A stretch of 33,723 nucleotides of DNA, from positions 1-33,723 of the IMG/VR virus record IMGVR_UViG_3300012208_000070. One strand, written 5' to 3'. The position numbers and the translations under genes are program-made. Under the pieces are notes generated by a model. The model made no database searches. It was not told where the DNA came from and saw only the letters and a program-made list of their open reading frames with translations. How positions within the stretch are numbered: position 1 is the first letter of the stretch; every line of letters begins with the position of its first letter. This document shows, in pieces, positions 1,563 through 32,540 of the stretch. The stretch comes from a virus. Taxonomy: Duplodnaviria; Caudoviricetes.

Positions 1563-2840
1563 ATGAATATGCCAAATTTGCTGGATGTTCCAGCATGTTC
1601 TGGTTGGACAGAAGTAGATCGAGCAATGTATAATTCTATGCCATTCTATCTTGCTAAAATGATGGTAGAAAGGCGTAAAACTTTTACACATTGGGCTAAG
1701 TTTGTAAAGAAACGAAAATGGGTTCCAAATGAAGGTGATACTCTTAAAGGAGTTATTACAGAACCATCACCACATAGGAGACAGTTTGCATATCCAAACT
1801 TGCTTAAGAATGTTCCAAAGAAAGATGTAATGGGAGTTAAAGAAAGAACTGTTCAAGCTAATGTTTATAGACAGAGGTTTGAAAGTCATGGACTTAATTT
1901 CTATCCATCTTTTAATGACTTTCTTGATCATGTTGATGATAATGCAACTGATATTATGGAGAAGATAGAAAGATATGAAGATATTTTTATTCGTACTAAT
2001 ATCTGGCATATGTCTCCATTTATGTTTCTTGCACAACCTAATAAAATGGTTGTAGTAAATACTCCACCTTGGCTTGGTGTTGGAACATTTGACACAGCAA
2101 ATGATGGAAAGACAACTGCTCTTCTATTAGCACAACTAGGAAATGTAACTTCTCATTTAACACTTCCAGCACTTCATGATGCTTTTAGTAAAATGGATAC
2201 TGATTTTCGGATTCCATTTTTTAAAGGTTCTGATATGCCAACAGAGGATAAGATACTTGATGGTAAATATTGCTTATCGACAAGTAATGAAACTTATTCT
2301 CAGTTTACATTTGATCCTTATTTGCAACAACACAAGAATTGTGATCTTGATGTTGTGAATGATAGTTTCAAAGGTTCTATCTTTGGAATGATTACATCAA
2401 AACTTGAAGATCTTCCTATGCGCTTCAAAAATGATGCTACATTTCCAGAGCCGGAAATAGTTCAGGATAATGGAGAAAATGAAGGTGAATGTCTTCCTAA
2501 TCCTGTTTATGCAACTATTGATGAAAATGGATCACCATATGAAGTTAGTTACTTAATTGGTGCTCCAGGACATGAAAGTATTCAAGTTGGACCTCCACCA
2601 TCAGCATTTACTGGTGATTCTCCACCACATAACTTTCCTAAAATGGAATGGAATGGTAGAGTAATTGCTACTAAACAAAAACTTGTTCCTTGTATTGATG
2701 CCAGTACTGGATTAACAGTTTATGAAACTAATGTTTATGGTGAGTGGCTGTGGTTTATTGCTCAAGTAGCATTAGGAATAGTTGCAAAACAACGTAGGAA
2801 TATATTTCCTATTGTTCATAAACGAAAGCGCGGAGTGTAA
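1563..2840 (+). CDS. major capsid protein (HK97 fold, N4 gp56-like)
   Basis: 425 aa, follows scaffold; E-loop-like PNEGDT motif; long dedicated upstream regulatory region. Confidence 0.75.
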   Translation: MNMPNLLDVPACSGWTEVDRAMYNSMPFYLAKMMVERRKTFTHWAKFVKKRKWVPNEGDTLKGVITEPSPHRRQFAYPNLLKNVPKKDVMGVKERTVQANVYRQRFESHGLNFYPSFNDFLDHVDDNATDIMEKIERYEDIFIRTNIWHMSPFMFLAQPNKMVVVNTPPWLGVGTFDTANDGKTTALLLAQLGNVTSHLTLPALHDAFSKMDTDFRIPFFKGSDMPTEDKILDGKYCLSTSNETYSQFTFDPYLQQHKNCDLDVVNDSFKGSIFGMITSKLEDLPMRFKNDATFPEPEIVQDNGENEGECLPNPVYATIDENGSPYEVSYLIGAPGHESIQVGPPPSAFTGDSPPHNFPKMEWNGRVIATKQKLVPCIDASTGLTVYETNVYGEWLWFIAQVALGIVAKQRRNIFPIVHKRKRGV

Positions 2841-2863: not shown

Positions 2864-3337
2864 ATGAAAAAATTACTTACTCTTATCTTTACAATGGCAC
2901 TCTTTACTGAGTGTTTAGTGGCTGAGATATATGTAACTAATAATATGGCAACAGGTCTTAGGACTGTAGTTAATGAAGCTATTGTATTATCTAGTTTACA
3001 AATCACTGGAACAACAAATGTTCTTCTTCGTTTTTATGACGGGGCAATAACAAATGTTACTGGAGCATATTCAAATGTAACAATATATGCTACAAATCGT
3101 ATTACTACTTTTGTTGGTGTAAATGGTATTACCAATAATTTTACTAATACTGTATTATATTCAGTTATAGCTGCTGTAGCTGCTGCAACTAATAATACAA
3201 CACCAATATTGGTATTAAATATTGGGGCTAATGTGGCACCATTTACATTTGATACTCCGCTTATATTTACAAAATATGTAAATGTTTCAAATGACCAAGG
3301 TGGAGTTACAATGGTATTAAATTATCATCAACCTTAA
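2864..3337 (+). CDS. signal-peptide-bearing TN-rich beta protein, putative capsid decoration
   Basis: MKKLLTLIFTMALFTECLVA Sec-type leader; beta-rich; immediately after MCP. Confidence 0.5.
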   Translation: MKKLLTLIFTMALFTECLVAEIYVTNNMATGLRTVVNEAIVLSSLQITGTTNVLLRFYDGAITNVTGAYSNVTIYATNRITTFVGVNGITNNFTNTVLYSVIAAVAAATNNTTPILVLNIGANVAPFTFDTPLIFTKYVNVSNDQGGVTMVLNYHQP

Positions 3338-5148
3338 TGACCCCAGGTTGTAATAGGAGAATAGCTAGTATAGTGTGTACTATACTAGCTATCTCTTCTT
3401 TATTTGGTGCTGTAACTGATGTAAATATTAGTTCACCAAGAGGAACAACTAATATTATTCGTAATATTATAACTAATAGTGTTGGGAGTGGAAAATTACT
3501 TTTAGTTCAAGGGACAAATATTTTAGGAATTTCTACTAATAATTTTGGACCTAGTAATGCAATAACTAGTGTAATTATAAATTTTTCCGGTCCAGGTGTT
3601 GGCGGAACAGTTATTAATCCAATTTTTGCTGATTCAACTAATGCACTATGGGCATTAGATGGATCATTTACAGATGTTCATTTACATTTTACAAATATTT
3701 CAGAAAAACAATTGTTATTTTCAGATACTATAACTAATAATGCTTCAACTACAAAACATGGATTTTTGCAAAAATTAAGTGGAAATACTAATAGTGTTTT
3801 TAAAGGAGATGGGAATGAATCAACTAATTTATATGGTATAGGAACAATAAATGCTAACAATGGAGGATTTACTAATAGTCTCCTTTTTAATGGTGTTCAA
3901 GTTCTTACTAATATTCCAGCTGTAGGTTCAACTAACACATTAACTAAATGGTTAACAAGTAATTCTTTATCATATATTGTTAATCTTTCTGGGATACTTA
4001 CTAATGATGGTGCTGGAAATTTTGGATATACTACTAATATAGGAGGACTTGGAACTTTAAATGCTAATAATGGTAGTTTTACTAATAGTCTTAAGTTAAA
4101 TGGGGTTGATGTTGTTACAAATGCTACTGGTTATAGAACTTTGCTTTCTGAAACTAATACATGGCTAGGAACAAATAATTTTACTGGATTTCTTAGAAAA
4201 GATGGAATAAATGTATTAACTAATATTCCTGCTTCTGGCTCTGCTAATACTCTTGTAATCTGGCTTACAACTAATAGCCAAAGCTACATAATAAATGGTG
4301 TAGGAATGCTAACTAATGATGGAAATGGAAATTTTGGTTATACAACTAATTTAAGTCAGGATATTACTTTTAATAATATTACTATAAATAGTAATTTAAC
4401 AGTTAATACTCTTACAGTTAATAGTAATCTTACTATTGCATATACATTAACTACAAGTAATGCTTTCTTTATTTCTGGAAAAGGGAATACTGTTATAATT
4501 ACAAATAGTTTGCAACTATTATCTTTATCTAACTCTGTTCTTATGGTTACTTCTACTGGAGTTGCAACTAATGTTACTTTAGGAACTGGATTAACTTTAA
4601 CCGGACAAACTTTATTTCCTACAAATATTGTAGAAAATCAACTTAATTTAACTGATTTAACTACAGGAGATGCTTCTACTTCTAAACATGGATTCCTTCC
4701 TAAACTTACTAATGATGTAACTAAATTTCTTAATGGAATTGGAACATATACTGTTCCATCTGGAGGTGGAAGTTCTTCTGGCTCAACCAATTATAGGAGT
4801 TCAATAATTACATTAACAATGACTACAACAAATGTAGATGCGAACCAAATTGATTGGGCAAAAACTAATGTAGCTTATAAATTAATATTAACGACTAATG
4901 CTTTCTTTAGTGATATTGTGTGTTCCAATGTTCCAGATACTAATAGTTTTCAATGGCTTCAGTTACATATTATACAAGATGGAACTGGTAGTAGGACAGT
5001 AACCTTTACTAATTCTATTTTTGCTGGTGTAAATGGAACATTTGCTCTTACAGCAACAGCTAATGCTTGGGATACTTTTACACTTATAAATAGTCCACAA
5101 ACAAATGGTAATGTAGCAGTTTTACCTGTAAATTACTTGCGAAGATGA
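3337..5148 (+). CDS. fibre-like protein with signal peptide and internal repeats
   Basis: Leader RRIASIVCTILAISSLFGA; two AST(T/S)KHGFLxKL fibre motifs; C-terminal IIQDGTGSRTVTF beta-sandwich typical of phage fibres. Confidence 0.65.
   Translation: MTPGCNRRIASIVCTILAISSLFGAVTDVNISSPRGTTNIIRNIITNSVGSGKLLLVQGTNILGISTNNFGPSNAITSVIINFSGPGVGGTVINPIFADSTNALWALDGSFTDVHLHFTNISEKQLLFSDTITNNASTTKHGFLQKLSGNTNSVFKGDGNESTNLYGIGTINANNGGFTNSLLFNGVQVLTNIPAVGSTNTLTKWLTSNSLSYIVNLSGILTNDGAGNFGYTTNIGGLGTLNANNGSFTNSLKLNGVDVVTNATGYRTLLSETNTWLGTNNFTGFLRKDGINVLTNIPASGSANTLVIWLTTNSQSYIINGVGMLTNDGNGNFGYTTNLSQDITFNNITINSNLTVNTLTVNSNLTIAYTLTTSNAFFISGKGNTVIITNSLQLLSLSNSVLMVTSTGVATNVTLGTGLTLTGQTLFPTNIVENQLNLTDLTTGDASTSKHGFLPKLTNDVTKFLNGIGTYTVPSGGGSSSGSTNYRSSIITLTMTTTNVDANQIDWAKTNVAYKLILTTNAFFSDIVCSNVPDTNSFQWLQLHIIQDGTGSRTVTFTNSIFAGVNGTFALTATANAWDTFTLINSPQTNGNVAVLPVNYLRR
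3688..4743 (+). repeat. second internal duplication in fibre gene (~3688-3813 and ~4618-4743)
   Basis: TNISEKQLLFSDTITNNASTTKHGFLQKL vs TNIVENQLNLTDLTTGDASTSKHGFLPKL. Confidence 0.8.
3892..4350 (+). repeat. internal ~49 aa duplication in fibre gene (~3892-4038 and ~4204-4350)
   Basis: GVQVLTNIPAVGSTNTLTKWLTSNSLSYI...LTNDGAGNFGYTTN vs GINVLTNIPASGSANTLVIWLTTNSQSYI...LTNDGNGNFGYTTN. Confidence 0.85.
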
Positions 5149-6143
5149 AATACTTAATATCTTTATTTTTAGTTTTAAGTTTAAGCGCCGCTGGCCCAGT
5201 TCAGGTAGCATTTGATTCTCAAGTAGTAAACTGGAATTATCGTTGTAGTACAAATAATATTGTTTTTACAACTACTGGATTAAGGTGCAGTTCGACATTT
5301 AATAAAACTATTTCTTTAATTGCTTCTTCTGTTTGGATGGGAGGAATTAGAACTTCTGGTCTTTATCCTGGAAATATCCTTCGTGCTAATTTAATGTGTG
5401 GCGGTAGTTATGAAAGTGGTGGTGGATGTGGAACTGGAACAACAGCTCCAAATCAGTATAATATAGGTTCTCCACAAATACCACTTATTAATGATACTGG
5501 AAATGGACTAGATATATGTGTAAATTCTGGTCTTGTAGATGCTTACCAAGCAAGATGGAAATATACTGAAACAGGATCAAGTGGTGGTCTTGGTTGTCTT
5601 ACATCTAATGTTTGGGTTGCTTTTGATACAGGAGTAATTCCAAATAATGTAAGTTCTTGGCAAAGTGATGTTCATGCTTGTGTTTATATGATGGGAGGTG
5701 CTTCTGAGTCTGCTGATGAGTTAGGTGTATATAATCCTTCTACTCTAGATAAATTAATAATTTATGCTGTTCATAGTGCAGCAGGACAACTTACTAGGAT
5801 TTGGAGTGATGGAAGTGCAGCTATAAGTGCTGACACAAATGGAACAGGATTTTATCTTGGAACAAAAACTTCTGCCTCATCAAATGGTGTTAAACAATAT
5901 CATAATAATTCACTTACTGCTACTTCAGCCGCAGTAGCAGGAAATTCTGCTAACTTAACAACATCTATTTATGTTTTTTGTCAGAATAATCTTCCAAATA
6001 TGTCTCCATTTCAACCGGAAGGAATGACTACTCATTTAATGGGTGGTTATGCTTTAGGGCGAGCTATTACTGCTACTCAAAATACAAATTATTATACTTT
6101 AGCTTGGCAGCCATTTGAGACATTATTAAATAGACAAAAATGA
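5145..6143 (+). CDS. signal-peptide-bearing protein with ConA/LamG-like beta-sandwich, putative receptor-binding tip
   Basis: Leader MKYLISLFLVLSLSAA; several Cys; LamG-like C-terminal pattern (FDTGV...YALGRAITATQ). Confidence 0.5.
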   Translation: MKYLISLFLVLSLSAAGPVQVAFDSQVVNWNYRCSTNNIVFTTTGLRCSSTFNKTISLIASSVWMGGIRTSGLYPGNILRANLMCGGSYESGGGCGTGTTAPNQYNIGSPQIPLINDTGNGLDICVNSGLVDAYQARWKYTETGSSGGLGCLTSNVWVAFDTGVIPNNVSSWQSDVHACVYMMGGASESADELGVYNPSTLDKLIIYAVHSAAGQLTRIWSDGSAAISADTNGTGFYLGTKTSASSNGVKQYHNNSLTATSAAVAGNSANLTTSIYVFCQNNLPNMSPFQPEGMTTHLMGGYALGRAITATQNTNYYTLAWQPFETLLNRQK

Positions 6144-6214
6144 GTTGGTTTAAAAAATGTTTAATTATTCTTTTTATAATTTTTTGGGTATGGTTTTGGA
6201 TGGCTATTTTATGA
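6140..6214 (+). CDS. 24-aa hydrophobic peptide, in frame with the following ORF
   Basis: MSWFKKCLIILFIIFWVWFWMAIL*; ATGA overlap with upstream stop; below the ORF track cutoff. Confidence 0.5.
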   Translation: MSWFKKCLIILFIIFWVWFWMAIL

Positions 6215-6217
6215 AAT

Positions 6218-6418
6218 GTGAAAGCAGACGAAATTATACATTTAATTAGAACTACTGATGATGAACATTGTAAAATATTACTTGAAGGGTTATTTAAATT
6301 TGGATTTGTTCATGGAATGAAAAAAGGTTATCAAAATATAGCAATGACAATGAAAAAAGAACTTCCAATTTCGGATGCTAATGAAGCTAATTTAATTTGG
6401 TCTAAAAATTTTTTATGA
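6218..6418 (+). CDS. hypothetical protein (possibly the C-terminal part of a 6140-6418 gene)
   Basis: GTG start; TGA overlaps the holin ATG. Confidence 0.5.
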   Translation: MKADEIIHLIRTTDDEHCKILLEGLFKFGFVHGMKKGYQNIAMTMKKELPISDANEANLIWSKNFL

Positions 6419-6735
6419 GTGATTTAGTAAAACCAAAAACATCTCCTGTTATTATAATTGGTAGTTGTTTTGTTTTTGGAAATCTTGCTATTTTTATTGT
6501 GGAATCCTTAAAAGGCTTACAAATTAAAGCACATTCACCTTCAGGAATAGATTCTTTTGATTTTTCTATTTTACTTGCTGGCGTTATTGGTTGCATTGCT
6601 ATAAATATTGCAGCCTTCATGAATCAGTCTTATTCTAGATTAAAAGATGCTTTAGAAAAGCATGAAACAGAGGTTAATAAAAGAACAGAAACGGAGTGGA
6701 TACGTCAGGAATTAGAAAAGTCTCAAAAGAAATGA
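6415..6735 (+). CDS. putative holin
   Basis: 106 aa, two TM segments, charged C-terminal tail, near the spanin pair. Confidence 0.55.
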   Translation: MSDLVKPKTSPVIIIGSCFVFGNLAIFIVESLKGLQIKAHSPSGIDSFDFSILLAGVIGCIAINIAAFMNQSYSRLKDALEKHETEVNKRTETEWIRQELEKSQKK

Positions 6736-6956
6736 CAGAAAAGCAAAAAAAGATTTTAGTTTATGCTTATAATGAACTATCAGAAGTTTTTCCACACCTT
6801 GTTATTATTGTATCAGAAAAAGAAATTCCTAACTCAATTCATCATCCAGATCCAAATTTGTTTTGGTTCGGTGGCTATATTGCAGCAAAACATTTAATTC
6901 AAGATGCTGGTGAAAAAATCCTAAGAAGAAAATTAACTAAAGTAGCTCCAAAATGA
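6732..6956 (+). CDS. hypothetical protein
   Basis: Track ORF 6696-6956; probable start is ATG 6732 (ATGA overlap). Confidence 0.55.
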   Translation: MTEKQKKILVYAYNELSEVFPHLVIIVSEKEIPNSIHHPDPNLFWFGGYIAAKHLIQDAGEKILRRKLTKVAPK

Positions 6957-7378
6957 AAAATAAAATAACTCTATTAGCGGCGGCTGTTTTATTAACTAAT
7001 TGTGCAATTTTAAATAAAGATTCTACAGAAGTTCAAAAAGCAAATGATGTATATAAACTTTCTTATATGGCATCAAGTATAGGAATTTCTGCCGCCTTAA
7101 AACAAAAACCAGAATGGAAAGATGATTTTAATTTGGCCTATTCATCTCTAGATGTTCTTGTAAATAATAAAAAAGTTACTGGTATTTTACTTAGAGAGAT
7201 AATATCTAAATTACCTATTCGTGAGCTTAAAAGTGAGAATGCTAAGATAGTAATAGATAATGCTACTATGTTATTTGATTTATCTATTGGTGATAAAATA
7301 AATATTGAGGATAATATTTATGTAATGGCAGCTTCTAAAGGTATTCGAGATGGGATGAAAATTGCATTAGGATACTAA
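6953..7378 (+). CDS. lipoprotein
   Basis: MKNKITLLAAAVLLTN-C lipobox-like leader, helical body. Confidence 0.7.
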   Translation: MKNKITLLAAAVLLTNCAILNKDSTEVQKANDVYKLSYMASSIGISAALKQKPEWKDDFNLAYSSLDVLVNNKKVTGILLREIISKLPIRELKSENAKIVIDNATMLFDLSIGDKINIEDNIYVMAASKGIRDGMKIALGY

Positions 7379-7624
7379 ATGATAAAAGCGATTTTTCAGT
7401 TTCTTAATAGCATATTTTTCTTTCTAAAAAGAAAAGCTAGAAAATTAGATGATCCTCTTGAACAGCATAAAAAAAGAATAGAACAAATTGATAAAGATAT
7501 TAAAAGTGAAAATTCAATTCAAGCAACTCTTAATGCTACTTCTGATCTTGATGAACTTGATAGGTTGCAGAAGCTTAAAGATAATACCAATAGATCAAAT
7601 GGAAATAAGAGTGAAAAAGGGTGA
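7379..7624 (+). CDS. putative i-spanin (Rz-like)
   Basis: Short N-terminal hydrophobic segment then charged coiled coil; overlapped by a lipoprotein gene in another frame. Confidence 0.5.
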   Translation: MIKAIFQFLNSIFFFLKRKARKLDDPLEQHKKRIEQIDKDIKSENSIQATLNATSDLDELDRLQKLKDNTNRSNGNKSEKG

Positions 7625-7715
7625 TATTATAAAAGAAGATGGATGGTTTATGAATGATGCACGCTATCAAAGATATAGAAAATCAGTTGCAGATAAAATA
7701 TTAGAAAATCAGTGA
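7488..7715 (+). CDS. putative o-spanin lipoprotein (Rz1-like); likely start ATG 7533
   Basis: MLLLILMNLIG-C lipobox; overlapped Rz/Rz1 architecture. Confidence 0.55.
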   Translation: MIKILKVKIQFKQLLMLLLILMNLIGCRSLKIIPIDQMEIRVKKGDIIKEDGWFMNDARYQRYRKSVADKILENQ

Positions 7716-9100: not shown

Positions 9101-10099
9101 ATGACAACACAAGATTTAGATAAAGGTATTGATTTGACAGGTCTTACTAATGTAAGTGCAAGTGAGCTTATGCAATTAGTAGACTCTGGTAGGTTAGGTT
9201 CAGATAAAGGGATGATTATAGAGACAGAAGATACAGCTTTAGATACACCTTTAGTGCCAAATCCTAATAATTCTTATACTGGAATTACTCCTTTATGGTG
9301 GAAACGATATATTTGGAAAAGAATTTTATTTGATAGTAGTGTAAAATGCTATATTTGGAATGAGAATGAGGCAGAAGATGATACTTTATTTTTTTGGACA
9401 TTAATTGATAAAGCTGGAGTAGAAGCTTTAATTTTAGCAAATACAGCTATTACTAATAGTGCTGCTGCTCAAGCAACTGCGAATACAGCTTTAGCTAATG
9501 CAGCAATAGCAGATACTAAAGCAGATGATGCACAGACTGATGCTGATACAGCTAATGTTTCTGCTACTGCAACAGCAGCAGGTTTAGTTGCTACTAATAG
9601 TTCAATTGCTTCTATGTGGTCTGCTGGAGATTTAAAATATACTTGTAAAACTACTGCTTATTCAATAATAGAAAATCAAGGTTGGTTAGATTGTGATGGT
9701 TCATTAGTAAATAGACTTATTTTTTCTAGTTTGTTTGCTGCAATTGGAACTACTTGGGGTGCTGGTGATGGTGTTTTAACTTTTCAACTTCCAGATTTTA
9801 GGGGTAGATGTTTAGTTGGTAGGGGAACTGGAGCTGGATTAACAGCTAGAAATTTAGGACTTACTAATTTTGGAGAAGAGACTCATTTACTTACTGCTGA
9901 TGAATCTGGATTACCTGCTCATACACACGCATATAGAAAACGTGATGAAGTTAATTCAACTGGATATTCTAGTGGAGGTAGTTTATTATACAATATTACT
10001 ATAGATGGTGTAACAGTAGCAAATGCTACTGCGCCGGCAAATGCAGCACATAATAATTGTCAGCCATCTGCTGTAGGTAGAATTCTTATTAAAACATGA
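9101..10099 (+). CDS. tail fibre protein with phage tail collar domain
   Basis: GDLKY...GWLDCDGS...LFAAIGTTWGAGDG..TFQLPDFRGR; GEETHLLT..E...PAHTH; HNNCQP. Confidence 0.9.
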   Translation: MTTQDLDKGIDLTGLTNVSASELMQLVDSGRLGSDKGMIIETEDTALDTPLVPNPNNSYTGITPLWWKRYIWKRILFDSSVKCYIWNENEAEDDTLFFWTLIDKAGVEALILANTAITNSAAAQATANTALANAAIADTKADDAQTDADTANVSATATAAGLVATNSSIASMWSAGDLKYTCKTTAYSIIENQGWLDCDGSLVNRLIFSSLFAAIGTTWGAGDGVLTFQLPDFRGRCLVGRGTGAGLTARNLGLTNFGEETHLLTADESGLPAHTHAYRKRDEVNSTGYSSGGSLLYNITIDGVTVANATAPANAAHNNCQPSAVGRILIKT

Positions 10100-15118: not shown

Positions 15119-16150
15119 ATGGCCGCTAAACGATCTAGAGCAAGAAATTTTGGTGGTGGAAAAGGTGGATTAGATTTAGGTTCTCTTTTAGGTGGTAATC
15201 AAGTAGAACAGGTTCCAGAAGTTCCACCTGAATCTTCTGTTACAGAAACTCCTTATGATTGGTCAAATAAAAGTATACCAACAGAAAATAGGATACAAAC
15301 TAAATTAGAGCCTAAAGATATTGGAACACAAGGAAAATTTAGACCTACAAATCCATTTTTAGATGCTATTACTGGAGGAAAAGGGACTAATCTTGCTAAT
15401 CAAGCAAATATAGAAAATATTCTTGCAGAAGAGGCTGCTAAGAGAGGTATTAGAACAAAACAAGCTGAGATACCTATTGATGTAGCTAAAAGACAGGCTC
15501 TTGATCCTTTAGATTTAGCTAAAGAAACTCAACAACATATAATAGCTCTTCTTACCTCTCAAGGTATACAACCAACACCAGAAAATATAAAAAGTCATCT
15601 TGATCTTACTTCTAATATTGCTTTATCAAAAACTGCACAACAGGGGTATGAAGGAATAGCTAAATCTAGATTAGGAACTGCTGAAGCAGAAAGAGGAATA
15701 GAATCAGAAGCAAAAACTAGACCTATAGATGTAGATACTGCAATACAACAATCAAAATTAGGAAATATAACTGCAAAAGGTAATTTAGAGGCTCAGCCAG
15801 AACTTCAGAAACAGAGAATGAAAGTAATTCCGGGTATGGCTGAAGCTGAGTATTATAAAAATTTAAAAGAAAGATTGTTTCCTCTTAGACCTGAAGAATC
15901 TGTTGCGGATATTGGAACTGGTAAAATTGCTTTTAAAGCTCCTTTAACAACTGGAGAACAATTATTAAAGAATACATTACCAGAACAATCAACTGGTATT
16001 AAAGCGAAGCTGGGTGGACCTTTTACTGGTGGTAATTTTACACAACCACAACAACCAGAAGGTTCAATTTCTTCTGATCCAACTAATCCTAATTATGATA
16101 TTATAATTGTTGGTGGTCAAAAAATAAGAGTTCCAAAACAAAAGAAATAA
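15119..16150 (+). CDS. internal virion (ejection) protein
   Basis: G/Q/A-rich helical low-complexity protein before the giant gene. Confidence 0.55.
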   Translation: MAAKRSRARNFGGGKGGLDLGSLLGGNQVEQVPEVPPESSVTETPYDWSNKSIPTENRIQTKLEPKDIGTQGKFRPTNPFLDAITGGKGTNLANQANIENILAEEAAKRGIRTKQAEIPIDVAKRQALDPLDLAKETQQHIIALLTSQGIQPTPENIKSHLDLTSNIALSKTAQQGYEGIAKSRLGTAEAERGIESEAKTRPIDVDTAIQQSKLGNITAKGNLEAQPELQKQRMKVIPGMAEAEYYKNLKERLFPLRPEESVADIGTGKIAFKAPLTTGEQLLKNTLPEQSTGIKAKLGGPFTGGNFTQPQQPEGSISSDPTNPNYDIIIVGGQKIRVPKQKK

Positions 16151-19100
16151 TGCCAGTATTTGAATATAAATTAAGAGAAGAATTAAAAAAAAGAGGTATT
16201 GATCCTGATAGTGCAGAACTTGTTGATGATGCAGAAGAACAATCTGCAAATATTAGTTCTCCAACTATTAAACCAAAATCTTCTACTTTTGGTGCTACTG
16301 CTAGATCATTTGCTACTGGAGTTTTACCAACAACTGCTGGATTAGTAGGAGGTAGTTTAGCGGCTGCTCCTTTTACTGGTGGAGCTTCAATTCCAGTTGG
16401 TTTAATTGCAGGTATAGCTACTTCTATTCTTGCTGGTAAAGGACAACAAAAAGCTATAGAAGCTATATCTCCAGAATTTGCACAGCAATTACAAACAGAT
16501 GTAGAACAACATCCAATTGCTACAACTATAGGTTCTTTAGCTTCTGCTTTGCCAACACTTAGACCAGGTATTAAATCTTTACCTAGTGCTGGTAGAGCTA
16601 TTAGAGATATTATAACTCCAGGTATTAGACCACATGCTACTGATATAGGTAATTTACTTAATGTAGGTTTAGGTTCTACAATTCAACCATCTATTAGATT
16701 AGCTACTGATCCTGAACTTAGAAAGAAAGCTCTTGCTGGTGATCCAGAATCTTTAGCTATATTAGGAATGGAAACTGTTGGTGGTGGTTTATTAAATGAT
16801 CCTAGAAAATGGACAAAATCTATAGGATTACATCCAAATGTTTATAGAGAAGATATTTTCAAAGGAGCTAGAGAAGCACAAAAACCTGATTTTATAGATG
16901 TAGAATCAGAAAAAATTCCAGAAGAAATTAAACTAAAGTCTCCATTAGAAACTGAACCTGTTATTCCTGGATATGAAAAAGCAGAAGTAGTTCCTACTAC
17001 AGAGAGTGGTGCAATTGGTGAATTAAAACAACGAGAAATAAAAGCTAAGAATGAGGCTATACAATTAAAAAAGGTTGCCGCAGCCGAAAGTAAATCTCAG
17101 AATGAAGCTAAAAGATTAGCAAAAATATATCAAACTGGAGATAAGAATGTTGCAGAATATTTTGGAATAGATTATTTAAAAGATTTTCAACCTTTATCTA
17201 ATGAAGCAAAAGGTAGATTAAGAGAAGGATATAAATATGAATTACAACAGGCTAAATTAGAAAAAGAAGCTACTGCAGAACCTGTTGTAAGCAAGAAAGA
17301 AGAACTGAAACCAGAGGAAACTAAAATTCCATTTGCTGAGGAAAAATTGATAGAACAACAAAAAGAAGATGATAGACTTAAATATTTAATTGAGGCTACT
17401 GGAGAAAAACAAGTAGAAGGTCCAAGTAAGTTAAAAGAGAGAGAAGGAATATATAGTGAGGAAGAACAATCTAAACTTTCTGAGTTAGCACAGAAAAGAA
17501 CAGAACCTTTAGTAAAAGGTGCAGAAAAAGAAGGTTTAATTCTAAAACCTACTAATGCTCTATTTGGAATGTTCCAAAAATTAGGTGTTCTTAGGAACAT
17601 GAAGTTAATTAAAGATAGAGTTTTCAAGTCTGATGGAACTGAAGTGAAAGGACAAGCAATCCTAAGAAATGGTTTAGAAGAAGCTATTGCTAAAGTAAAT
17701 CCTGAGACTGGAACAATAGAAACTGCGCCACATGAATTAGGTCATATATTTAGAGATGATCTATTAAAGCATGGAAATGATTCTGAGAAAAAGATAGTTA
17801 CTAAAGGTGATAGAATTATAGAAGCTTCGCCTGAATATCAGGAATGGAAATCTGCAAGAAAAGCTGAAAATAAGGAATCTTCTATAGAAGAATATTATAA
17901 TACTCATGTAGGAGAAGATTCTATTAGACGTGTATTAAAAACTGATGGAGATGGAAAATTTAAATCATTTTTAAAGGACTTCTGGTCTGCTGTTAAGGTT
18001 AAATATGGAAATCCAGAATCTAAAGATTTTGTTAGACTTATGAGTAATAAGCTAATAAATGATGCTCCTTTTAAAGAAACATTTGGAAAAGATGTTCAAT
18101 CTAAAGTTCCTTTAAGTTCTATAGAAGAAACTAGAACTCCAGAAGCTAGGTTATCTGAAGAAGAAACTCAACCTAGTAAAGAACAGTTAATATTTGATAG
18201 AATACCAGATAAGACTGGAATTCCTGGAATTACACAGGAAGGCTTACAAGAACCTATAATGGATTTTAAAAATAGTAGTTTAGATGAACAGTCCTATTGG
18301 AAATTCTTAACTAAAGTTAAAGGATATACAAAAGCTGAAGCAAATGAACAATTAAATAAATTTAGAACTCTTCAAAATGAAAGACCTGGTAACTTTATTC
18401 CAAAATATTCCGAAGAAGAATATAATAAGTTACCTACTGCTCCTGTTAAATATTCTGGTAAATTTGAGGGTGATGAAATGTTACCAAGCTTTCATAACTA
18501 TAATCTAACAGAAGATATTTCAGGTCATCCTAAAGATTCTACACTTGCTCAGGCTACTTTAGCAAATAAAGGTTATAGAATACCCAATGAATTGGAACAA
18601 CATAGTTATAAAGAGATGGTAGAAAATAGTGATAAATTAAATAAGTTGAAAGAGAATTTAGGAAAATTTTCTGAAGAAGAAGGTAGTAAATTACCTAAAA
18701 AAGAATATAAAACTCCAGTCGAACAGTTAGAAGAAAGTAAACATCCTATAGATAAAGAAATATTAGATCAGTTACATATTGTTAAAAATATAAATACAGA
18801 AGGAAGAAAAGTTGTAATAACTAGAGATAGTTTTGATAAAAATAGTTCAGAATATCAATCAGCAAAATTTAAAGTTGAGAAATTAAAACAAGATTATAAA
18901 AAAGCGATTGAAAAGTTAAAACAACTCTGGGGTCCAGAAGATGTAACTAAACAAAGTGAAGAAGAAGGTTCTAAATTACCTAAATATTCAGAGAAAGAAA
19001 TACCTAAATTAAGAATGCTTCCCCAAACAAAAGAAGCTGTAGAATCTTCGTCTAATCCAAAACAAGAAGAGACTAAATTAAAGAATTTCTCTACACCCTG

Positions 19101-21465
19101 GGGACTTAAATTTCTAACTCCTAGAATTGATAAAATAGCAGAACAATTTAAAAATAATACTGGAAACTATGTATCTAATCAATTACATAAATGGTGGGGA
19201 TGGACAGATCAATTAGCCGGACAAATTGGAAATAAACAAATAGCAAATTTTAAGGATGCTAATTTTACAGAAGCAGAACATAGCTCTCTTGTAAAATATC
19301 TTTACGACATGGATAGTAAAGGAAATTCTGATGTAAAGTTAAATACTAAACAAGAAGATTTTGTTTCTAAATATTTAGAGAATATTCGAGAACCTAAACT
19401 TTTACAGAGAGAATTAGGTCTTAAGGTTGCTGGCCGTTTAGCAGGTATAAAAGAAGATGGTTACTTTCCTAATATGCTGGATAATGATGTAGCCTATAAC
19501 TGGAGTGAGAAAAGTGATTCAGAACAATCTAAAACTTATGATAAATTATATACTGATTTTCTAGAGAAAAATGGTCTTTCTAAAGAAGATGCTTTAGCAC
19601 AATTAAAAGATTATAAAGATGCTATAGGACATCATGTATCTCCTGATGTAGAATTTGGTGCTATTAGAAAAGCAGAAGGGCTAGGACTTCCTTTTGAATT
19701 AATTGAGAAGAATCTTCCTCATTTAATGTCACGTTATGCTAGTAGAGCAGCTAGAGATTTAGGATATTTTAAATTTTTACAAAATGATCCTAAAATGAGG
19801 AAAGCTTTTAATCTACAAGATCAATTTGGAAATAGAGATAAAACTGATTTAGCTCCAGATATAGAACATATTGGTGGTGCTAAAGTTTCTAAAGATGCTT
19901 TAGCTTCTGTTTTGGGCGCGGATAGATCAACTAGAAATCCTAAGATATTAGCTATATCTCGTATTGTAAATAATGTTTTAATGGGTGTTGGGACACCTAT
20001 TAGGAATCTAGTTAATATTCCAGGTTTTATTTCTACTTATGTTCGCCCAGGTCAGATTCCACTTATATTTAAAGCTTTTGGTAATATGAATGATAGTGCA
20101 GCTAGAGCTTTTGAAAATAATTCTATTAGAGCTTCATTTGCTGATTATGATACAGCCGGAGATTTTGTATCTAGTCCTGATCCTTTTATAAGAAGACTTT
20201 CTGAGGGTTCTTATATATTGAGGAAATACCAAGGAAGAAATCTTTCTGATAAATTAGAAGGTTGGTATATACATACATTAGGAGAATTACTTGCAAAAGA
20301 TAATTTAGCAGCAGCAAAGAATGGAGATAAAGAAGCTGTAAGACTAAGTAGAAGATTTGGAGATACACTAGAAGGTGGAGTAGATAAACTATTTGAAAAG
20401 AATGCTATTGTAAAGGATGAACATATACAAGCAATAGCAAAAAGATTTACTGATGCTGTAAGAGGAACATATGGTCCTGAAGGAGTTCCTACTTGGACAT
20501 CAGAGGGTGGATTAAGTTTTTTTACTCAGCTTTCTAGATTTAATATAGAGAAAGCAAATACAATTTGGAAAGATGCAATTTTACCAATTAAAGAGGGCTC
20601 TTATGGTCCATTACTTAGGACTGCTCTTGGTGGTATTTTAACTGGTGCAGCAATAGAACAAATAAATGAATTACTTTCTGGTAAAAGAAGTGTTGATCCT
20701 ACAATAACTGAAGTAGAAAAATTTGGAAGTCCAGTAGATGTAGGAGCTAAAGTAATTGGTCTGTGGCAATTAGCTTCTATTGCTGGAATAATTTCTGACT
20801 TTTCTAAAGTTGGCTCTAATCTAGCTCAAGGAAAAGGGATTAAATATAATAATCCACTTAGCTTTCCACTTTATTCTTTTGCTACAGATGTTCTTGCTAA
20901 GAATACAAGTGATTTAGTAAATTCTATCCAAGACGGTGATGATCCTATAGAAAGTCTAGCTTCTTATATTCAAGCTCTTGCGCAACAAAGTTCTCAGACT
21001 TATAGATATGTTGATGCAAATTTTGTTAATCCAGAATTAGCTAAAAGAAAAGAAGCTTTTCGCGATCTTAGAATATTTAAAGAACTAGATTCTGGAGATA
21101 TTCCACAGGGAACTGGAGAATTACCTAATGTAATTGGAGGAAAAAAATTAAAAGAGTTTAAACAAAGTTCTGATCTAGAAATTGTAGCAAAACTATTACC
21201 AGAATTAATTGATAAAGCATTAGAAAAATCTAAAGATAATTCTGGTAATGTTGATCCTTTTGTTCTTAAAAAAGAACTACAGAAAATAAAGGAGAATAAC
21301 TACCAAACTATGCCATCTCCTACAGATATGCCTATTAAATTTGTGAAGTTTATTTCTTTTCTTGAAAAATCACAAGGAAAAGAGGCTGCCGCAAGTAGAT
21401 TACAAGATTATCTTTTACAAAACTTAGTAAATAAAGAGAAATCTAAATTAGTTCCATCACTCTAA
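16150..21465 (+). CDS. large ejection/polyvalent protein with zincin-like HExxH motif
   Basis: 1771 aa; hydrophobic Gly/Ala N-terminal helices; APHELGHIF; repeated SEEE linkers; last gene of structural module. Confidence 0.75.
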   Translation: MPVFEYKLREELKKRGIDPDSAELVDDAEEQSANISSPTIKPKSSTFGATARSFATGVLPTTAGLVGGSLAAAPFTGGASIPVGLIAGIATSILAGKGQQKAIEAISPEFAQQLQTDVEQHPIATTIGSLASALPTLRPGIKSLPSAGRAIRDIITPGIRPHATDIGNLLNVGLGSTIQPSIRLATDPELRKKALAGDPESLAILGMETVGGGLLNDPRKWTKSIGLHPNVYREDIFKGAREAQKPDFIDVESEKIPEEIKLKSPLETEPVIPGYEKAEVVPTTESGAIGELKQREIKAKNEAIQLKKVAAAESKSQNEAKRLAKIYQTGDKNVAEYFGIDYLKDFQPLSNEAKGRLREGYKYELQQAKLEKEATAEPVVSKKEELKPEETKIPFAEEKLIEQQKEDDRLKYLIEATGEKQVEGPSKLKEREGIYSEEEQSKLSELAQKRTEPLVKGAEKEGLILKPTNALFGMFQKLGVLRNMKLIKDRVFKSDGTEVKGQAILRNGLEEAIAKVNPETGTIETAPHELGHIFRDDLLKHGNDSEKKIVTKGDRIIEASPEYQEWKSARKAENKESSIEEYYNTHVGEDSIRRVLKTDGDGKFKSFLKDFWSAVKVKYGNPESKDFVRLMSNKLINDAPFKETFGKDVQSKVPLSSIEETRTPEARLSEEETQPSKEQLIFDRIPDKTGIPGITQEGLQEPIMDFKNSSLDEQSYWKFLTKVKGYTKAEANEQLNKFRTLQNERPGNFIPKYSEEEYNKLPTAPVKYSGKFEGDEMLPSFHNYNLTEDISGHPKDSTLAQATLANKGYRIPNELEQHSYKEMVENSDKLNKLKENLGKFSEEEGSKLPKKEYKTPVEQLEESKHPIDKEILDQLHIVKNINTEGRKVVITRDSFDKNSSEYQSAKFKVEKLKQDYKKAIEKLKQLWGPEDVTKQSEEEGSKLPKYSEKEIPKLRMLPQTKEAVESSSNPKQEETKLKNFSTPWGLKFLTPRIDKIAEQFKNNTGNYVSNQLHKWWGWTDQLAGQIGNKQIANFKDANFTEAEHSSLVKYLYDMDSKGNSDVKLNTKQEDFVSKYLENIREPKLLQRELGLKVAGRLAGIKEDGYFPNMLDNDVAYNWSEKSDSEQSKTYDKLYTDFLEKNGLSKEDALAQLKDYKDAIGHHVSPDVEFGAIRKAEGLGLPFELIEKNLPHLMSRYASRAARDLGYFKFLQNDPKMRKAFNLQDQFGNRDKTDLAPDIEHIGGAKVSKDALASVLGADRSTRNPKILAISRIVNNVLMGVGTPIRNLVNIPGFISTYVRPGQIPLIFKAFGNMNDSAARAFENNSIRASFADYDTAGDFVSSPDPFIRRLSEGSYILRKYQGRNLSDKLEGWYIHTLGELLAKDNLAAAKNGDKEAVRLSRRFGDTLEGGVDKLFEKNAIVKDEHIQAIAKRFTDAVRGTYGPEGVPTWTSEGGLSFFTQLSRFNIEKANTIWKDAILPIKEGSYGPLLRTALGGILTGAAIEQINELLSGKRSVDPTITEVEKFGSPVDVGAKVIGLWQLASIAGIISDFSKVGSNLAQGKGIKYNNPLSFPLYSFATDVLAKNTSDLVNSIQDGDDPIESLASYIQALAQQSSQTYRYVDANFVNPELAKRKEAFRDLRIFKELDSGDIPQGTGELPNVIGGKKLKEFKQSSDLEIVAKLLPELIDKALEKSKDNSGNVDPFVLKKELQKIKENNYQTMPSPTDMPIKFVKFISFLEKSQGKEAAASRLQDYLLQNLVNKEKSKLVPSL
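17449..19011 (+). repeat. dispersed x[YFLQ]SE[EK]ExxK-like peptide repeats
   Basis: IYSEEEQSKL ~17449, RLSEEETQPSK ~18148, KYSEEEYNKL ~18403, KFSEEEGSKL ~18664, KQSEEEGSKLP-KYSEKEIPKL ~18949-19011. Confidence 0.8.
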
Positions 21466-24126: not shown

Positions 24127-25179
24127 CTATTCTATTTCTTTAAGACCATTTGGATTATTTATTTCGTGATAATCACTCCAGTTATAACCTAATTTTAAAG
24201 AACTTTTCATTCTAAATTTAGTTCCATCGGTAGGTGATATATATTCTCTTTCTAGACCGTTTTTTAATAATAAACTACAATACTCTATATCTTTATCATT
24301 ATCAGGACATTCAGCTAAAATACTATCATGTCCATTATTCAGAATATGGTAATCTAGTTTTTCTTTTTCTATAATTTCTTGTATTTCTGTTATTGCTATA
24401 TTAGTTGCTGTCCCAACACTTGATTGTGGAATGAAAGCATATGCTTCCCTAATCATATTATCATCTATGAATCCAGTAAATTTAAAAGGAAATCCAAAAA
24501 GATTTCTTAGTTCTTTATACTTTCTAATATGCTCATATATTTTAGAATGCCATAAATGTATTTCTGGAAAGAGCTTATGAAACATCATAAGATATTGTTC
24601 GCCTTCTTTTTTAGAGAGTGCAATTAAACCTCCAGATTCCTCTAGTAAGGATAGGCAGAACTTAAATGCTTGCATACCATAGGAACTTGCGTGAACAATT
24701 TTCTTACCAATAAAATAATATCTTTCTTTTGAAGGCCAGTGATCAGAACTTCTAATAAGATTATCTAATTCTTTCCAAAAAGGTAGACTTCTTAAATATT
24801 TTATTTCTGTATTAATAGCTAAATCTATTTTTTCAGCATCAAAGTGTTTTTTAAATTGTTCAGCAAAAACATAAAGTGCTATAAAAGTATGAGGTTTTAT
24901 GTTATTTTTAAAAAGTGATCTATAATTTCCATCTCTGCATAAATAAGCTACTATTAAAGCTTCAGCACCAGACTGATCTTTTGATACTAATTTATACCCT
25001 TTATCAGCTTCCCAAATTATTCTCATACCTCCTTCTATATTTTGCCTATTGCCACCGAAATTGATCCATTTTGTATCATGTAAAGAGGAAAGTATCTTTC
25101 TACTTCCTAATCTAAATGTATTAGTCGCACTTACAATCCAATGACTTGTATCCCTAGGTTTATCTAGTTTATTGTGCAT
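24127..25179 (-). CDS. polA: DNA polymerase family A, C-terminal subunit (palm and fingers)
   Basis: TNTFRLGS..GGNRQNI, motif A DQSGAE, motif B KKIVHASSYG, PQS, motif C HDS. Confidence 0.9.
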   Translation of the reverse strand: MHNKLDKPRDTSHWIVSATNTFRLGSRKILSSLHDTKWINFGGNRQNIEGGMRIIWEADKGYKLVSKDQSGAEALIVAYLCRDGNYRSLFKNNIKPHTFIALYVFAEQFKKHFDAEKIDLAINTEIKYLRSLPFWKELDNLIRSSDHWPSKERYYFIGKKIVHASSYGMQAFKFCLSLLEESGGLIALSKKEGEQYLMMFHKLFPEIHLWHSKIYEHIRKYKELRNLFGFPFKFTGFIDDNMIREAYAFIPQSSVGTATNIAITEIQEIIEKEKLDYHILNNGHDSILAECPDNDKDIEYCSLLLKNGLEREYISPTDGTKFRMKSSLKLGYNWSDYHEINNPNGLKEIE

Positions 25180-25330
25180 TTTTTATTCTTGTATCGCTAA
25201 TAGAAAATTCCTTAGCTTTTATTATAGAAAATACACATCTACCCTCTATGCTTATTTTAATACCACCTTCTGTAATTATGATATTAACTTTATCTGGTTC
25301 TATATATTCAATACCTATTAATTGTTTCAT
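25169..25330 (-). CDS. hypothetical 53-aa protein
   Basis: MKQLIGIEYIEPDKVNII...KNAQ*; ATGA coupled upstream, overlaps the polA-C start. Confidence 0.55.
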   Translation of the reverse strand: MKQLIGIEYIEPDKVNIIITEGGIKISIEGRCVFSIIKAKEFSISDTRIKNAQ

Positions 25331-25506
25331 TTTTCAAATTCTATTTCTTTTAATATTTTATGTGCTTCATTTATTTTATCTAGAAGTTCTTTGTTTTTAC
25401 CTGTAAAATATTTTAGATTTGATAAAGCTTGTGTTATAGATTCTACGCCTAATTTACACTCATAAAAAAGATATAAAGACTCAAATTGTTTTTTTACTAT
25501 TTTCAT
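25327..25506 (-). CDS. hypothetical 59-aa protein
   Basis: MKIVKKQFESLYLF...EIEFEK*; fills the gap, overlaps both neighbours. Confidence 0.5.
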   Translation of the reverse strand: MKIVKKQFESLYLFYECKLGVESITQALSNLKYFTGKNKELLDKINEAHKILKEIEFEK

Positions 25507-25693
25507 TTATAAGATTCCATACTTTATTAAAAATTCTTCGATCTATTAATAATTTTGTAAAATAGTATTTAACACAATCATCACATAGATAAATTATTTT
25601 TTCTTCTTTTATAGTTTTATCTATAAATTTAAATAAATTACTAAGTTCACTTTTACATCTATTACATTTTATTGGTTTTAAGTATTCGCTCAT
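25481..25693 (-). CDS. small zinc-finger protein
   Basis: CNRC...CDDC. Confidence 0.6.
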   Translation of the reverse strand: MSEYLKPIKCNRCKSELSNLFKFIDKTIKEEKIIYLCDDCVKYYFTKLLIDRRIFNKVWNLINENSKKTI

Positions 25694-25883
25694 TGTATGT
25701 ATCTTCTGCTAATCTAATGGAATTAACCATTCCCCAGAGAATATATTCTTCTGTTATTGGATTCCATAATTTATCTTTACCTTGGTCTTCTACCATAAAA
25801 GTGCTTTTACAGCAAGCAGTATGTATACGAACTTGTATATACTTTTTCTCATTTTTAAAAGTAATATTTTCAACTATTATCAT
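25662..25883 (-). CDS. hypothetical protein
   Basis: 73 aa, ATGA coupling. Confidence 0.55.
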   Translation of the reverse strand: MIIVENITFKNEKKYIQVRIHTACCKSTFMVEDQGKDKLWNPITEEYILWGMVNSIRLAEDTYNERILKTNKM

Positions 25884-26104
25884 TTTATTTGTAAAGTGTC
25901 GTATGGTCTTCTGTCAAAAGCTTTTACATGAGTTTCTTCTATATGTTTTTTTATTACTATATGATCCCCACATTCATAGGTTCCATATTCTTTTATACTA
26001 TTAAGAAGTTCCTCACGTTTTGGTTTAAGCTCAGAATCTATAATTTCTTTCTGGCGCTCTAAATTATAAATATCTGCTGCTAGTTTTATTTGTTTATCAG
26101 TCAT
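25880..26104 (-). CDS. hypothetical coiled-coil plus beta protein
   Basis: 74 aa, ATGA coupling on both sides. Confidence 0.6.
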   Translation of the reverse strand: MTDKQIKLAADIYNLERQKEIIDSELKPKREELLNSIKEYGTYECGDHIVIKKHIEETHVKAFDRRPYDTLQIK

Positions 26105-26313
26105 ACTTGTTGTTCTATTGATGTTATGTAACTTATATCTATAAATTTAATTAGTTGTAATTCTTGATTTAAGATTATAACTCTATTTATAGGCGGAATA
26201 AAATAAATAAAATCTGGATGAAAAATTTGAGTTGATTTTCCGTCTACTGTATTTATTTTAAATGGTTTAAATGGGGCAAGATTTTTAAATGTTTCTAATT
26301 CTGTAATTGTCAT
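26101..26313 (-). CDS. Sm/Hfq-like small protein, paralog 1
   Basis: PFKPFKINTVDGKS..IFHPDFIYF...IDISYITSIE; similar to 29287 and 32331 ORFs. Confidence 0.55.
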   Translation of the reverse strand: MTITELETFKNLAPFKPFKINTVDGKSTQIFHPDFIYFIPPINRVIILNQELQLIKFIDISYITSIEQQV

Positions 26314-26316
26314 AAT

Positions 26317-29286: not shown

Positions 29287-29496
29287 TTATTCTATATTTC
29301 CATGATCTGTTCTTGTTACATGTTCAGAAGCTAGAACATGAACCCCACCATTAGGGCCAATAACAACAAAACTTCTTCCTATTGGTGGAAAATAAATGTA
29401 ATCTATATGGGGAATATGAATCTGAAATCCGTCTGTCATATAAATTGTGAATGGTTTAAAATCTTTTATTTGATCTTTTAACTCTCCTATTTTCAT
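29287..29496 (-). CDS. Sm/Hfq-like small protein, paralog 2
   Basis: FKPFTIYMTDGFQIHIPHIDYIYFPP...LASEHVT. Confidence 0.55.
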   Translation of the reverse strand: MKIGELKDQIKDFKPFTIYMTDGFQIHIPHIDYIYFPPIGRSFVVIGPNGGVHVLASEHVTRTDHGNIE

Positions 29497-32338: not shown

Positions 32339-32540
32339 AAGATTTTTCTAAAGAAGTTATATGATTTTTATTTAAGACTATATAATATCCAGTTGATTGA
32401 AAGAGAAATATACCATCACCCACTGGATGAAATATTAAAAAATCTTGATGTGCTACGATAAATTTTCTTCCATCTGAAAGACAAATTAATATAGGACACT
32501 TTGTATCTACTAGATAAGCTTTTATTGTTTCTGTTGTCAT
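32331..32540 (-). CDS. Sm/Hfq-like small protein, paralog 3
   Basis: PILICLSDGRKFIVAHQDFLIFHP...LNKNHITSLE. Confidence 0.55.
   Translation of the reverse strand: MTTETIKAYLVDTKCPILICLSDGRKFIVAHQDFLIFHPVGDGIFLFQSTGYYIVLNKNHITSLEKSYV

Follow-up and report, generated by a model that had tools for sequence, protein, structure and literature searches.

Predicted export signals and a Thr-Asn excess in putative virion accessory proteins of a family of tailed phages

To our knowledge, tailed-phage particles are held to be assembled entirely in the cytoplasm, and the jelly-roll cement and decoration proteins that we know of are cytoplasmic and leaderless. Decoration proteins can attach to finished capsids, as with the late-added parts Hoc and Soc of T4. 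In a literature search we found no description of an export route for particle parts in any tailed phage. The archaeal tailed virus HFTV1 was considered as a precedent with exported, glycosylated turret proteins and was set aside, the term "signal peptide" being absent from the main text (PMC12494034). Here we analysed a window of 33,723 nucleotides (the whole stretch, positions 1 to 33,723 of IMG/VR record IMGVR_UViG_3300012208_000070), in which genes with export-type leaders lie directly behind the capsid gene (Table 1).

Table 1. Positions of the capsid gene, the leader-bearing genes and other features of the window.
Feature	Position	Strand	Remarks
Major capsid protein, 425 aa	1563..2840	+	HK97 fold; leaderless and without TN excess; serves as context and control
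157-aa leader-bearing protein	2864..3337	+	Jelly-roll with TN-rich hairpin; family core gene
603-aa leader-bearing modular fibre-like protein	3337..5148	+	33 TN; differs between phages
332-aa leader-bearing protein	5145..6143	+	Predicted ConA/LamG-like lectin fold; no TN excess
24-codon hydrophobic frame	6140..6214	+	Ends in in-frame TGA; does not serve the following ORF as a leader
66-aa ORF	6218..6418	+	No leader, no TN; outside the exported set
Likely lysis genes	6415..7715	+	Assigned from sequence anatomy
Holin-like membrane protein	6415-6735	+	Anatomy
Lipoprotein-like protein	6953-7378	+	Anatomy; weak Cor PHROG match, E 0.01
Spanin-like pair, overlapping	7379-7624, 7488-7715	+	Anatomy; lipobox in 7488-7715
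Collar-domain tail fibre	9101..10099	+	No leader; N-terminal domain behind a leader in L015 and L017
Small protein, one of five paralogues	26101..26313	-	Motif points to a PVC host; not in the module

The gene upstream of the cluster had been read as the major capsid gene, and the structural comparison agrees: the model of its product (pLDDT 83) has an HK97 capsid fold, with the capsids of N4, Moo19 and DEV as the best Foldseek matches (E 2e-11 to N4; 236 matches at E<=0.001). The 614-aa and 572-aa ORFs at the expected portal and terminase places had no Pfam or PHROG match. No cultured phage searched matched the capsid or the 157-aa protein, and a capsid scan of genome contigs gave 0/83 candidates. 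The three leader genes matched nothing in Pfam, PHROG or NCBIfam; sequence searches of the PDB returned nothing significant and Foldseek against the PDB zero matches at E<=0.001.

Leaders were called by a heuristic that looks for basic residues in the N-region, for a hydrophobic core and for a lipobox, with a loose -3/-1 check. By this heuristic, all three consecutive genes begin with n-h-c leaders of the Sec/SPase I type, as the sequence-only reading had proposed. None of the three proteins has a lipobox Cys or a membrane anchor, the marks of phage envelope lipoproteins of the Cor and Bor type. The fourth candidate of that reading, at position 6140, had to be dropped: it is just 24 codons long and ends in TGA, and the 66-aa ORF behind it is leaderless, as is its homologue with the same start place in a related locus (L034). 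Leaders are well kept among relatives. The first gene downstream of the capsid gene carries one in 42/42 loci read (some of them duplicates), and homologues of the 157-aa protein pass the heuristic in 77/80 and 127/134 cases in two sets, against 0/116 for capsid homologues used as a control. By eye, the failing homologues are N-truncated calls or borderline leaders. A lipobox was seen in 2/80 members of the 157-aa family and an extra membrane helix in 1/80. With leaders at these frequencies, the family departs from the description of cement and decoration proteins as cytoplasmic and leaderless. The conservation supports the earlier claim of export, and the leader-bearing proteins are thus predicted to be exported.

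The same reading had drawn attention to Thr-Asn (TN) dipeptides and N-x-S/T sequons, and its approximate hand counts for the 603-aa protein (33 TN, 6 NT and 16 sequons) and its counts for the 157-aa protein (7 TN and 6 sequons) were reproduced by our recount. For the 603-aa protein 12.3 TN are expected, and the observed number was reached in 0/5000 shuffles; for the 157-aa protein, which has 2 NT, the expectation is 2.9 (p 0.012, shuffles). The 332-aa protein, on the other hand, has 3 TN against 2.7 expected, so the description of the cluster as TN-rich holds for two of the proteins and fails for the third. Two further proteins, P0227 and P0229, likewise have a leader and no TN excess. The collar fibre (4 observed, 2.5 expected), adaptor (1, 1.4) and nozzle (4, 3.3) are without TN bias, as had been stated. 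Across relatives, 81 leader-bearing ORFs contain 572 TN against 219 expected (z 23.8), and TN is their sole outlying dipeptide, the next having z 4.9; the remaining 265 ORFs contain 347 against 332 expected. Removing the 157-aa family from the leader-bearing set still leaves 415 against 169. The excess is mild in the leaderless portal and adaptor families (43 vs 28 and 28 vs 19), and the capsid homologues have 140 TN against 190 expected. TN bias is absent from one genome (G034) and from the leader set of another (G227; 60 vs 55.7), whose TN-rich ORFs were placed in the no-leader set. Composition as the cause of the excess was ruled out by the shuffles, the NT counts and the leaderless controls.

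A host in the Limisphaerales (Verrucomicrobiota) appears likely. The motif of the small paralogues leads to loci with PVC titles in 116 of the 120 scanned, and a contig of the phage family was binned in 1 of 401 Limisphaerales genomes. LamG proteins of this order contain 190 TN against 98 expected; those of Chthoniobacterales (68 vs 76) and Pirellulales (53 vs 63.5) show no excess, which rules out the fold as its cause. Within the likely host order the excess spans unrelated folds, and the TN-rich proteins are of the surface type. The excess in the phage proteins therefore matches secreted proteins of this order. In the proposed check against the host secretome, BamA gave a negative result: across 30 Limisphaerales it contains 35 TN where 59.5 are expected. 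TN thus does not mark every protein that the host exports, and its use as a general secretome motif was rejected. On the opposing side, the phage has a G+C content of 30% versus about 60% in most sampled hosts, and the G227 contig is not integrated. An endosymbiont-like bin of 335 kb (G000), in which contigs C1 and C5 carry the phage, was rejected as the host; its large contigs have no TN bias.

Leaders, combined with the same TN excess as in secreted proteins of the likely host, suggest that particle parts are likely exported. A role in the virion is supported indirectly by gene position, by the jelly-roll fold, by the missing anchor and by leader-bearing tail fibres. In the predicted 157-aa structure, a single jelly-roll bears a long hairpin with several TN sites kept across homologues. 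The fold matches small uncharacterised Caudovirales proteins; its core is closest to Ena1, a subunit of spore appendages (Z 8.3), followed by the PBSX exported protein XepA (Z 7.4) and by the cement of Helicobacter phage KHP40 (PDB 7dou; Z 7.1, rmsd 2.9, 89 aligned), the last tied with unrelated folds. As modelled, the jelly-roll match is generic and not specific for cement. A trimer prediction of the mature protein scored 0.00 in a run without controls, and the family has weak, scattered PHROG matches. We still regard capsid decoration or cement as its likely function. As for the fibres, the C-terminal part of the 603-aa protein shares 42% identity over 225 columns with P0226, which matches tail fibre phrog_9017. 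The domain at the N terminus of the collar fibre recurs in 14 other sequences (L048 among them is a truncated duplicate of L006) and stands behind a leader in two, L015 and L017. These two match tail-fibre PHROGs (E 1e-23 and 2e-10), contain 16 TN and 1 NT, and are not sisters in the capsid tree. In both phages, the tail fibre itself has acquired a leader and TN together. The mature part of the 332-aa protein contains 8 Cys, and in L002 a weak homologue starts with a leader of the twin-arginine type.

On balance, we lean towards a model of exported virion accessories whose TN sites a host enzyme likely modifies and which would bind to particles at lysis. The small jelly-roll capsid decoration, the fibre and the lectin, with their predicted Sec signals, would first pass the inner membrane of the likely Limisphaerales host and presumably lose their leaders. 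They would then probably be modified at Thr-Asn by a host enzyme, the chemistry being the weakest step, and attach to finished particles, perhaps at lysis. Capsid, portal, adaptor and nozzle would remain cytoplasmic. The likely gain would be a host-type glycan coat or folding in an oxidising compartment. More tentatively, core decoration, fibres and sometimes the tail fibre may be glycosylated through an as yet undescribed Limisphaerales Thr-Asn pathway after export and snap on at lysis.

Alternatively, the proteins may be exported and never enter the virion, acting in the periplasm, on the infected-cell surface or in the medium through receptor masking, superinfection exclusion, adhesion or fibrils of the jelly-roll protein. 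Signal sequences usually imply an envelope role, and such a role would suit the resemblance to Ena1 and then XepA, the position directly upstream of the likely lysis genes and the surface-type character of TN-rich host proteins. We nevertheless judge it unlikely: lipobox, membrane anchor and sorting signal are all absent, the place right after the capsid gene is constant in the loci read, and tail fibres with the family N-terminal domain gain a leader in L015 and L017.

The nature of the modification was also considered. Glycosylation at N-x-S/T, as the sequence-only reading had envisaged, found no support: sequons are not above composition in the 603-aa (16 vs 19.4), 157-aa (6 vs 3.3, p 0.08) and 332-aa (7 vs 5.6) proteins or in the 81 leader-bearing ORFs (358 vs 371), and STT3 was found in 0/5 Verrucomicrobiota MAGs, which are possibly incomplete. 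N-glycosylation by STT3, PglB or AglB was therefore rejected. At the level of a guess, a GT-C enzyme could O-glycosylate Thr or N-glycosylate Asn of TN, and TMEM260-like proteins could equally speculatively be one candidate enzyme. An enzyme of this type (PF11028) is present in 41/41 genomes of the likely host order, and also in 9/26 Chthoniobacterales; B. thetaiotaomicron has a TMEM260-like gene too. According to the accessible parts of two preprints, the IPT-domain sequon of human TMEM260 ends in G-G-x-x-(x)-T/S, not TN.

A literature search found no enzyme with a TN sequon. This would fit exported virion parts whose TN reflects a preference, either structural or set by chaperones or secretion, among the host order's beta-rich extracellular proteins, for instance for folding, protease resistance, or ion or ice binding. 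TN sites do lie in beta-strand surroundings, where the second residue beyond Asn is hydrophobic; the 157-aa hairpin keeps several of them across homologues, and BamA has no excess. However, the excess crosses unrelated folds yet is missing from LamG proteins of two other orders, Ser does not substitute for Thr (SN 7 and NS 13 in the 603-aa protein), and Pro after Asn is avoided in the phage proteins (2/556 TN sites), which makes a preference of this kind distinctly improbable. Finally, cytoplasmic pro-sequences or membrane tethers for assembly are a very poor explanation of the leaders, given that their n-h-c anatomy stays constant in more than 200 homologues although the sequences are unrelated, that two proteins of related phages have leaders of the twin-arginine type, and that TN content tracks both the leader and the host secretome.

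If exported accessories do join the particle at lysis, export of a core particle protein would be an extra stage in phage assembly, coupled to lysis, by which phages gain host glycans and disulfide chemistry and the particle comes to wear a host-type glycan coat. The data would then predict a new bacterial protein-modification sequon. The TN signature suggests that an abundant order of Verrucomicrobiota has a hitherto unrecognised modification system, and it could help to assign hosts to phages without cultured members. The family, made up of uncultured phages, is large, with 926 clusters at 50% identity matching the 157-aa profile; the query contained the leader and 150 of the 926 matches were listed, so this search is uninformative on leaderless homologues.

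Among known systems, the general O-glycosylation of Bacteroidota uses the motif D-(S/T)-(A/I/L/V/M/T). Like the putative TN site, this is a short motif particular to one lineage and over-represented in proteins outside the cytoplasm, but the motif and the phylum are different. Mycobacteriophage virions are glycosylated by phage-encoded glycosyltransferases, whereas none was found among the scanned ORFs of the present phage. Glycans on such tailed-phage particles are described in the accessible part of PMC11256854. The KHP40 cement is likewise a small jelly-roll encoded next to the capsid gene; the 157-aa protein differs from it by the leader and the TN-rich hairpin insert. The jelly-roll is also shared by Bacillus Ena1, by SPbeta YomS and by PBSX XepA, the last a phage protein whose title calls it "exported", but at only 12-16% identity and with Z scores in the generic range. 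According to the available text of PMC10384203, the spikes of pleolipoviruses carry glycans that the host probably adds. These spikes and the coat proteins of filamentous phages resemble the present proteins as virion proteins that use the host export system. Those viruses, however, assemble at the membrane and keep their anchors, whereas here anchorless proteins would be exported by a tailed phage with an HK97-fold capsid.

The first gene downstream of the capsid gene encodes a protein with a predicted Sec-type export signal (leader) across this phage family; leaders were called with a custom heuristic, not SignalP. We fetched 50 loci around capsid homologues and left out eight, four because they stop within the capsid gene and four as duplicate records. 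In 42/42 remaining loci, which still include some duplicates, this gene was a leader-bearing homologue of 156-187 aa, three copies being cut by a contig end. Database homologues of the 157-aa window protein passed the heuristic in 77/80 cases in one set and 127/134 in another, and capsid homologues in 0/116; the family profile covers 926 clusters at 50% identity. Behind this fixed gene stand none to ~7 variable leader-bearing genes, phage by phage, with beta-helix, LamG, Hoc-like or tail-fibre domains. The distant L018-L032 group of loci showed the first gene only, within the loci covered.

We counted Thr-Asn dipeptides (TN) in 346 non-redundant capsid-strand ORFs, each 100 aa or longer. In the 81 leader-bearing ORFs there were 572 TN (expected 219; z 23.8, the next-ranking dipeptide having z 4.9, both values overstated because homologues are not independent), and in the 265 leaderless ones 347 (expected 332). 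Without the 157-aa family, the leader-bearing excess was still 415 versus 169, and N-x-S/T sequons were neutral in both sets. The leader/TN pattern is a real, conserved and unexplained feature. Two genes of the same cluster, in L002 and L006, have twin-arginine-type leaders and few TN (Table). The fibre-like proteins P0227 and P0229 carry a leader and no TN excess, which suggests that phages with other hosts export fibres as well.

In the window itself, the dipeptide counts of the sequence-only reading were right: the 603-aa protein has 33 TN and 6 Asn-Thr (NT), with 12.3 TN expected and 0/5000 shuffles reaching 33, and the 157-aa protein has 7 TN and 2 NT (p 0.012). The 332-aa protein lacks a TN excess. 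By the heuristic, each of the three leaders combines a basic, a hydrophobic and a small-residue region and lacks a lipobox. The proposed export stands; modification at sequons does not, these being no more frequent than expected, and the suggested fourth gene at 6140 is a 24-codon frame only.

The 53.7-kb phage consists of two contigs, the window and L052, binned in an unrelated endosymbiont-like assembly; that assembly (G000) is a reduced endosymbiont-like genome mixed with this phage (contigs C1 and C5). The phage's capsid protein has a predicted HK97 fold with N4-type capsids as best structural matches. Many of its 116 homologues come from contigs of 52-55 kb; a search of 50,697 phage records gave no match. 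Scaffold, adaptor and nozzle are named from gene position only. No endolysin was recognised with Pfam or PHROGs among the scanned ORFs of the whole phage, yet it has holin-like and spanin-like genes.

Table. Positions of features in the window and in fetched loci (L)
Sequence	Position	Strand	Feature
Window	1563-2840		capsid gene, 425 aa
Window	16150-21465		1771-aa protein without family hit, at the position of an ejection protein
Window	24127-27786	-	DNA polymerase A in two ORFs (489 and 350 aa), several small ORFs between
Window	26101-26313	-	67-70 aa paralogue
Window	29287-29496	-	67-70 aa paralogue
Window	32331-32540	-	67-70 aa paralogue
L001	3034-3240	+	67-70 aa paralogue
L001	6389-6592	+	67-70 aa paralogue
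L002	13099-13992		twin-arginine-type leader
L006	9968-10708		twin-arginine-type leader
L052	18505-19347		sigma-54 interaction (enhancer-binding) protein on phage DNA, E 6e-60
L037	13195-14721		hybrid histidine kinase or response regulator, late gene region of related phage
L006	11424-11858		as L037
L017	14762-15193		as L037

A virion role is best supported by the tail-fibre slot, together with the failure to find any anchor that would hold the exported proteins on the cell. The collar fibre of the window lacks a leader, and 12 other sequences have its N-terminal domain starting at residue 1-5. In L015 and L017 this domain directly follows a 22-residue leader; these fibres occupy the same slot 5' of the adaptor gene, match tail-fibre PHROGs, and hold 16 TN and 1 NT. 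The two phages are not sisters on the capsid tree (20 sequences), which module exchange could also explain. An internal Met could yield a leaderless form of the L017 fibre; the L015 fibre has none.

Beyond the sequence-only reading, we link the phage TN excess to a TN signature of a likely host order. Five paralogous phage genes of 67-70 aa, without Pfam or NCBIfam hit, form a family which we take to be typical of the PVC group; a motif from one of them matched 120 loci (by motif, not by alignment, in 6/64 parts of genome_contigs), 116 titled Planctomycetota or Verrucomicrobiota. This field narrows because the TN excess differs between orders. After seven overlapping loci had been dropped, the 29 LamG proteins from the order to which a Limisphaerales MAG belongs contained 190 TN where 98 were expected, and 22 of them exceeded expectation. 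The 27 from Chthoniobacterales gave 68 TN (76 expected) and the 27 from Pirellulales 53 (63.5 expected); each order is named from one titled record. In six sampled genomes, TN was raised in leader-bearing ORFs (296 versus 177.5 expected) and also in the no-leader set (428 versus 275), largely owing to long ORFs that have extracellular domains and misassigned starts. An 8-kb contig of the phage family, not integrated, occurred in 1/401 genomes of the Limisphaerales order. Against the host link speak the absence of TN bias in genome G034, the widely differing G+C of phage and sampled hosts, and the TN-poor Limisphaerales BamA (L253-L282; 35 versus 59.5 expected, NT 103), whose depletion may reflect avoidance of a modification site.

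On balance, we lean slightly towards a joint reading in which the leader-bearing proteins would be exported, a host enzyme would modify them at TN, and the modified proteins would attach at lysis. Pro right after the TN Asn is avoided (2/556 phage sites; less strongly in hosts) and few acidic residues lie near TN sites, which would be consistent with an enzyme that reads an extended chain. STT3 was not found in five Verrucomicrobiota genomes, which may be incomplete; TMEM260-like GT-C genes occurred in 41/41 genomes of the Limisphaerales order and 9/26 of Chthoniobacterales. The sequon of human TMEM260 differs from TN (10.64898/2026.03.17.711096, 10.64898/2026.09.21.753134); TMEM260 is also covered in PMC10214176.

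In literature with most subscription journals outside its scope, we found neither a tailed phage with exported virion parts nor a TN motif in Verrucomicrobiota. The literature covered includes 10.64898/2026.09.15.751708, 10.64898/2026.09.13.751334, PMC13437554, PMC10384203 and PMC12494034; the negatives refer to main texts, and predicted signal peptides of virion proteins may be listed in supplements. For the cell surface, 10.64898/2026.10.24.761521 describes signal peptides on phage sortase substrates and on outer-membrane proteins.

As for folds, the 603-aa protein is modular; among 15 proteins homologous to its C-terminal part, 13 are TN-rich and 12 leader-bearing, and one matches a tail-fibre PHROG. 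For the 332-aa protein, a ConA/LamG fold is predicted, which it shares with viral clusters. The model of the mature 157-aa protein (pLDDT 93) shows a beta-sandwich with one long hairpin (residues 49-85); the most conserved TN sites fall within this hairpin or next to it. This model resembles uncharacterised phage proteins of 90-125 aa (probability 1.0, E 1e-3 to 2e-2), and its likeness to the jelly-rolls Ena1 (Z 8.3), XepA, YomS and KHP40 cement (Z 7.1) is generic.
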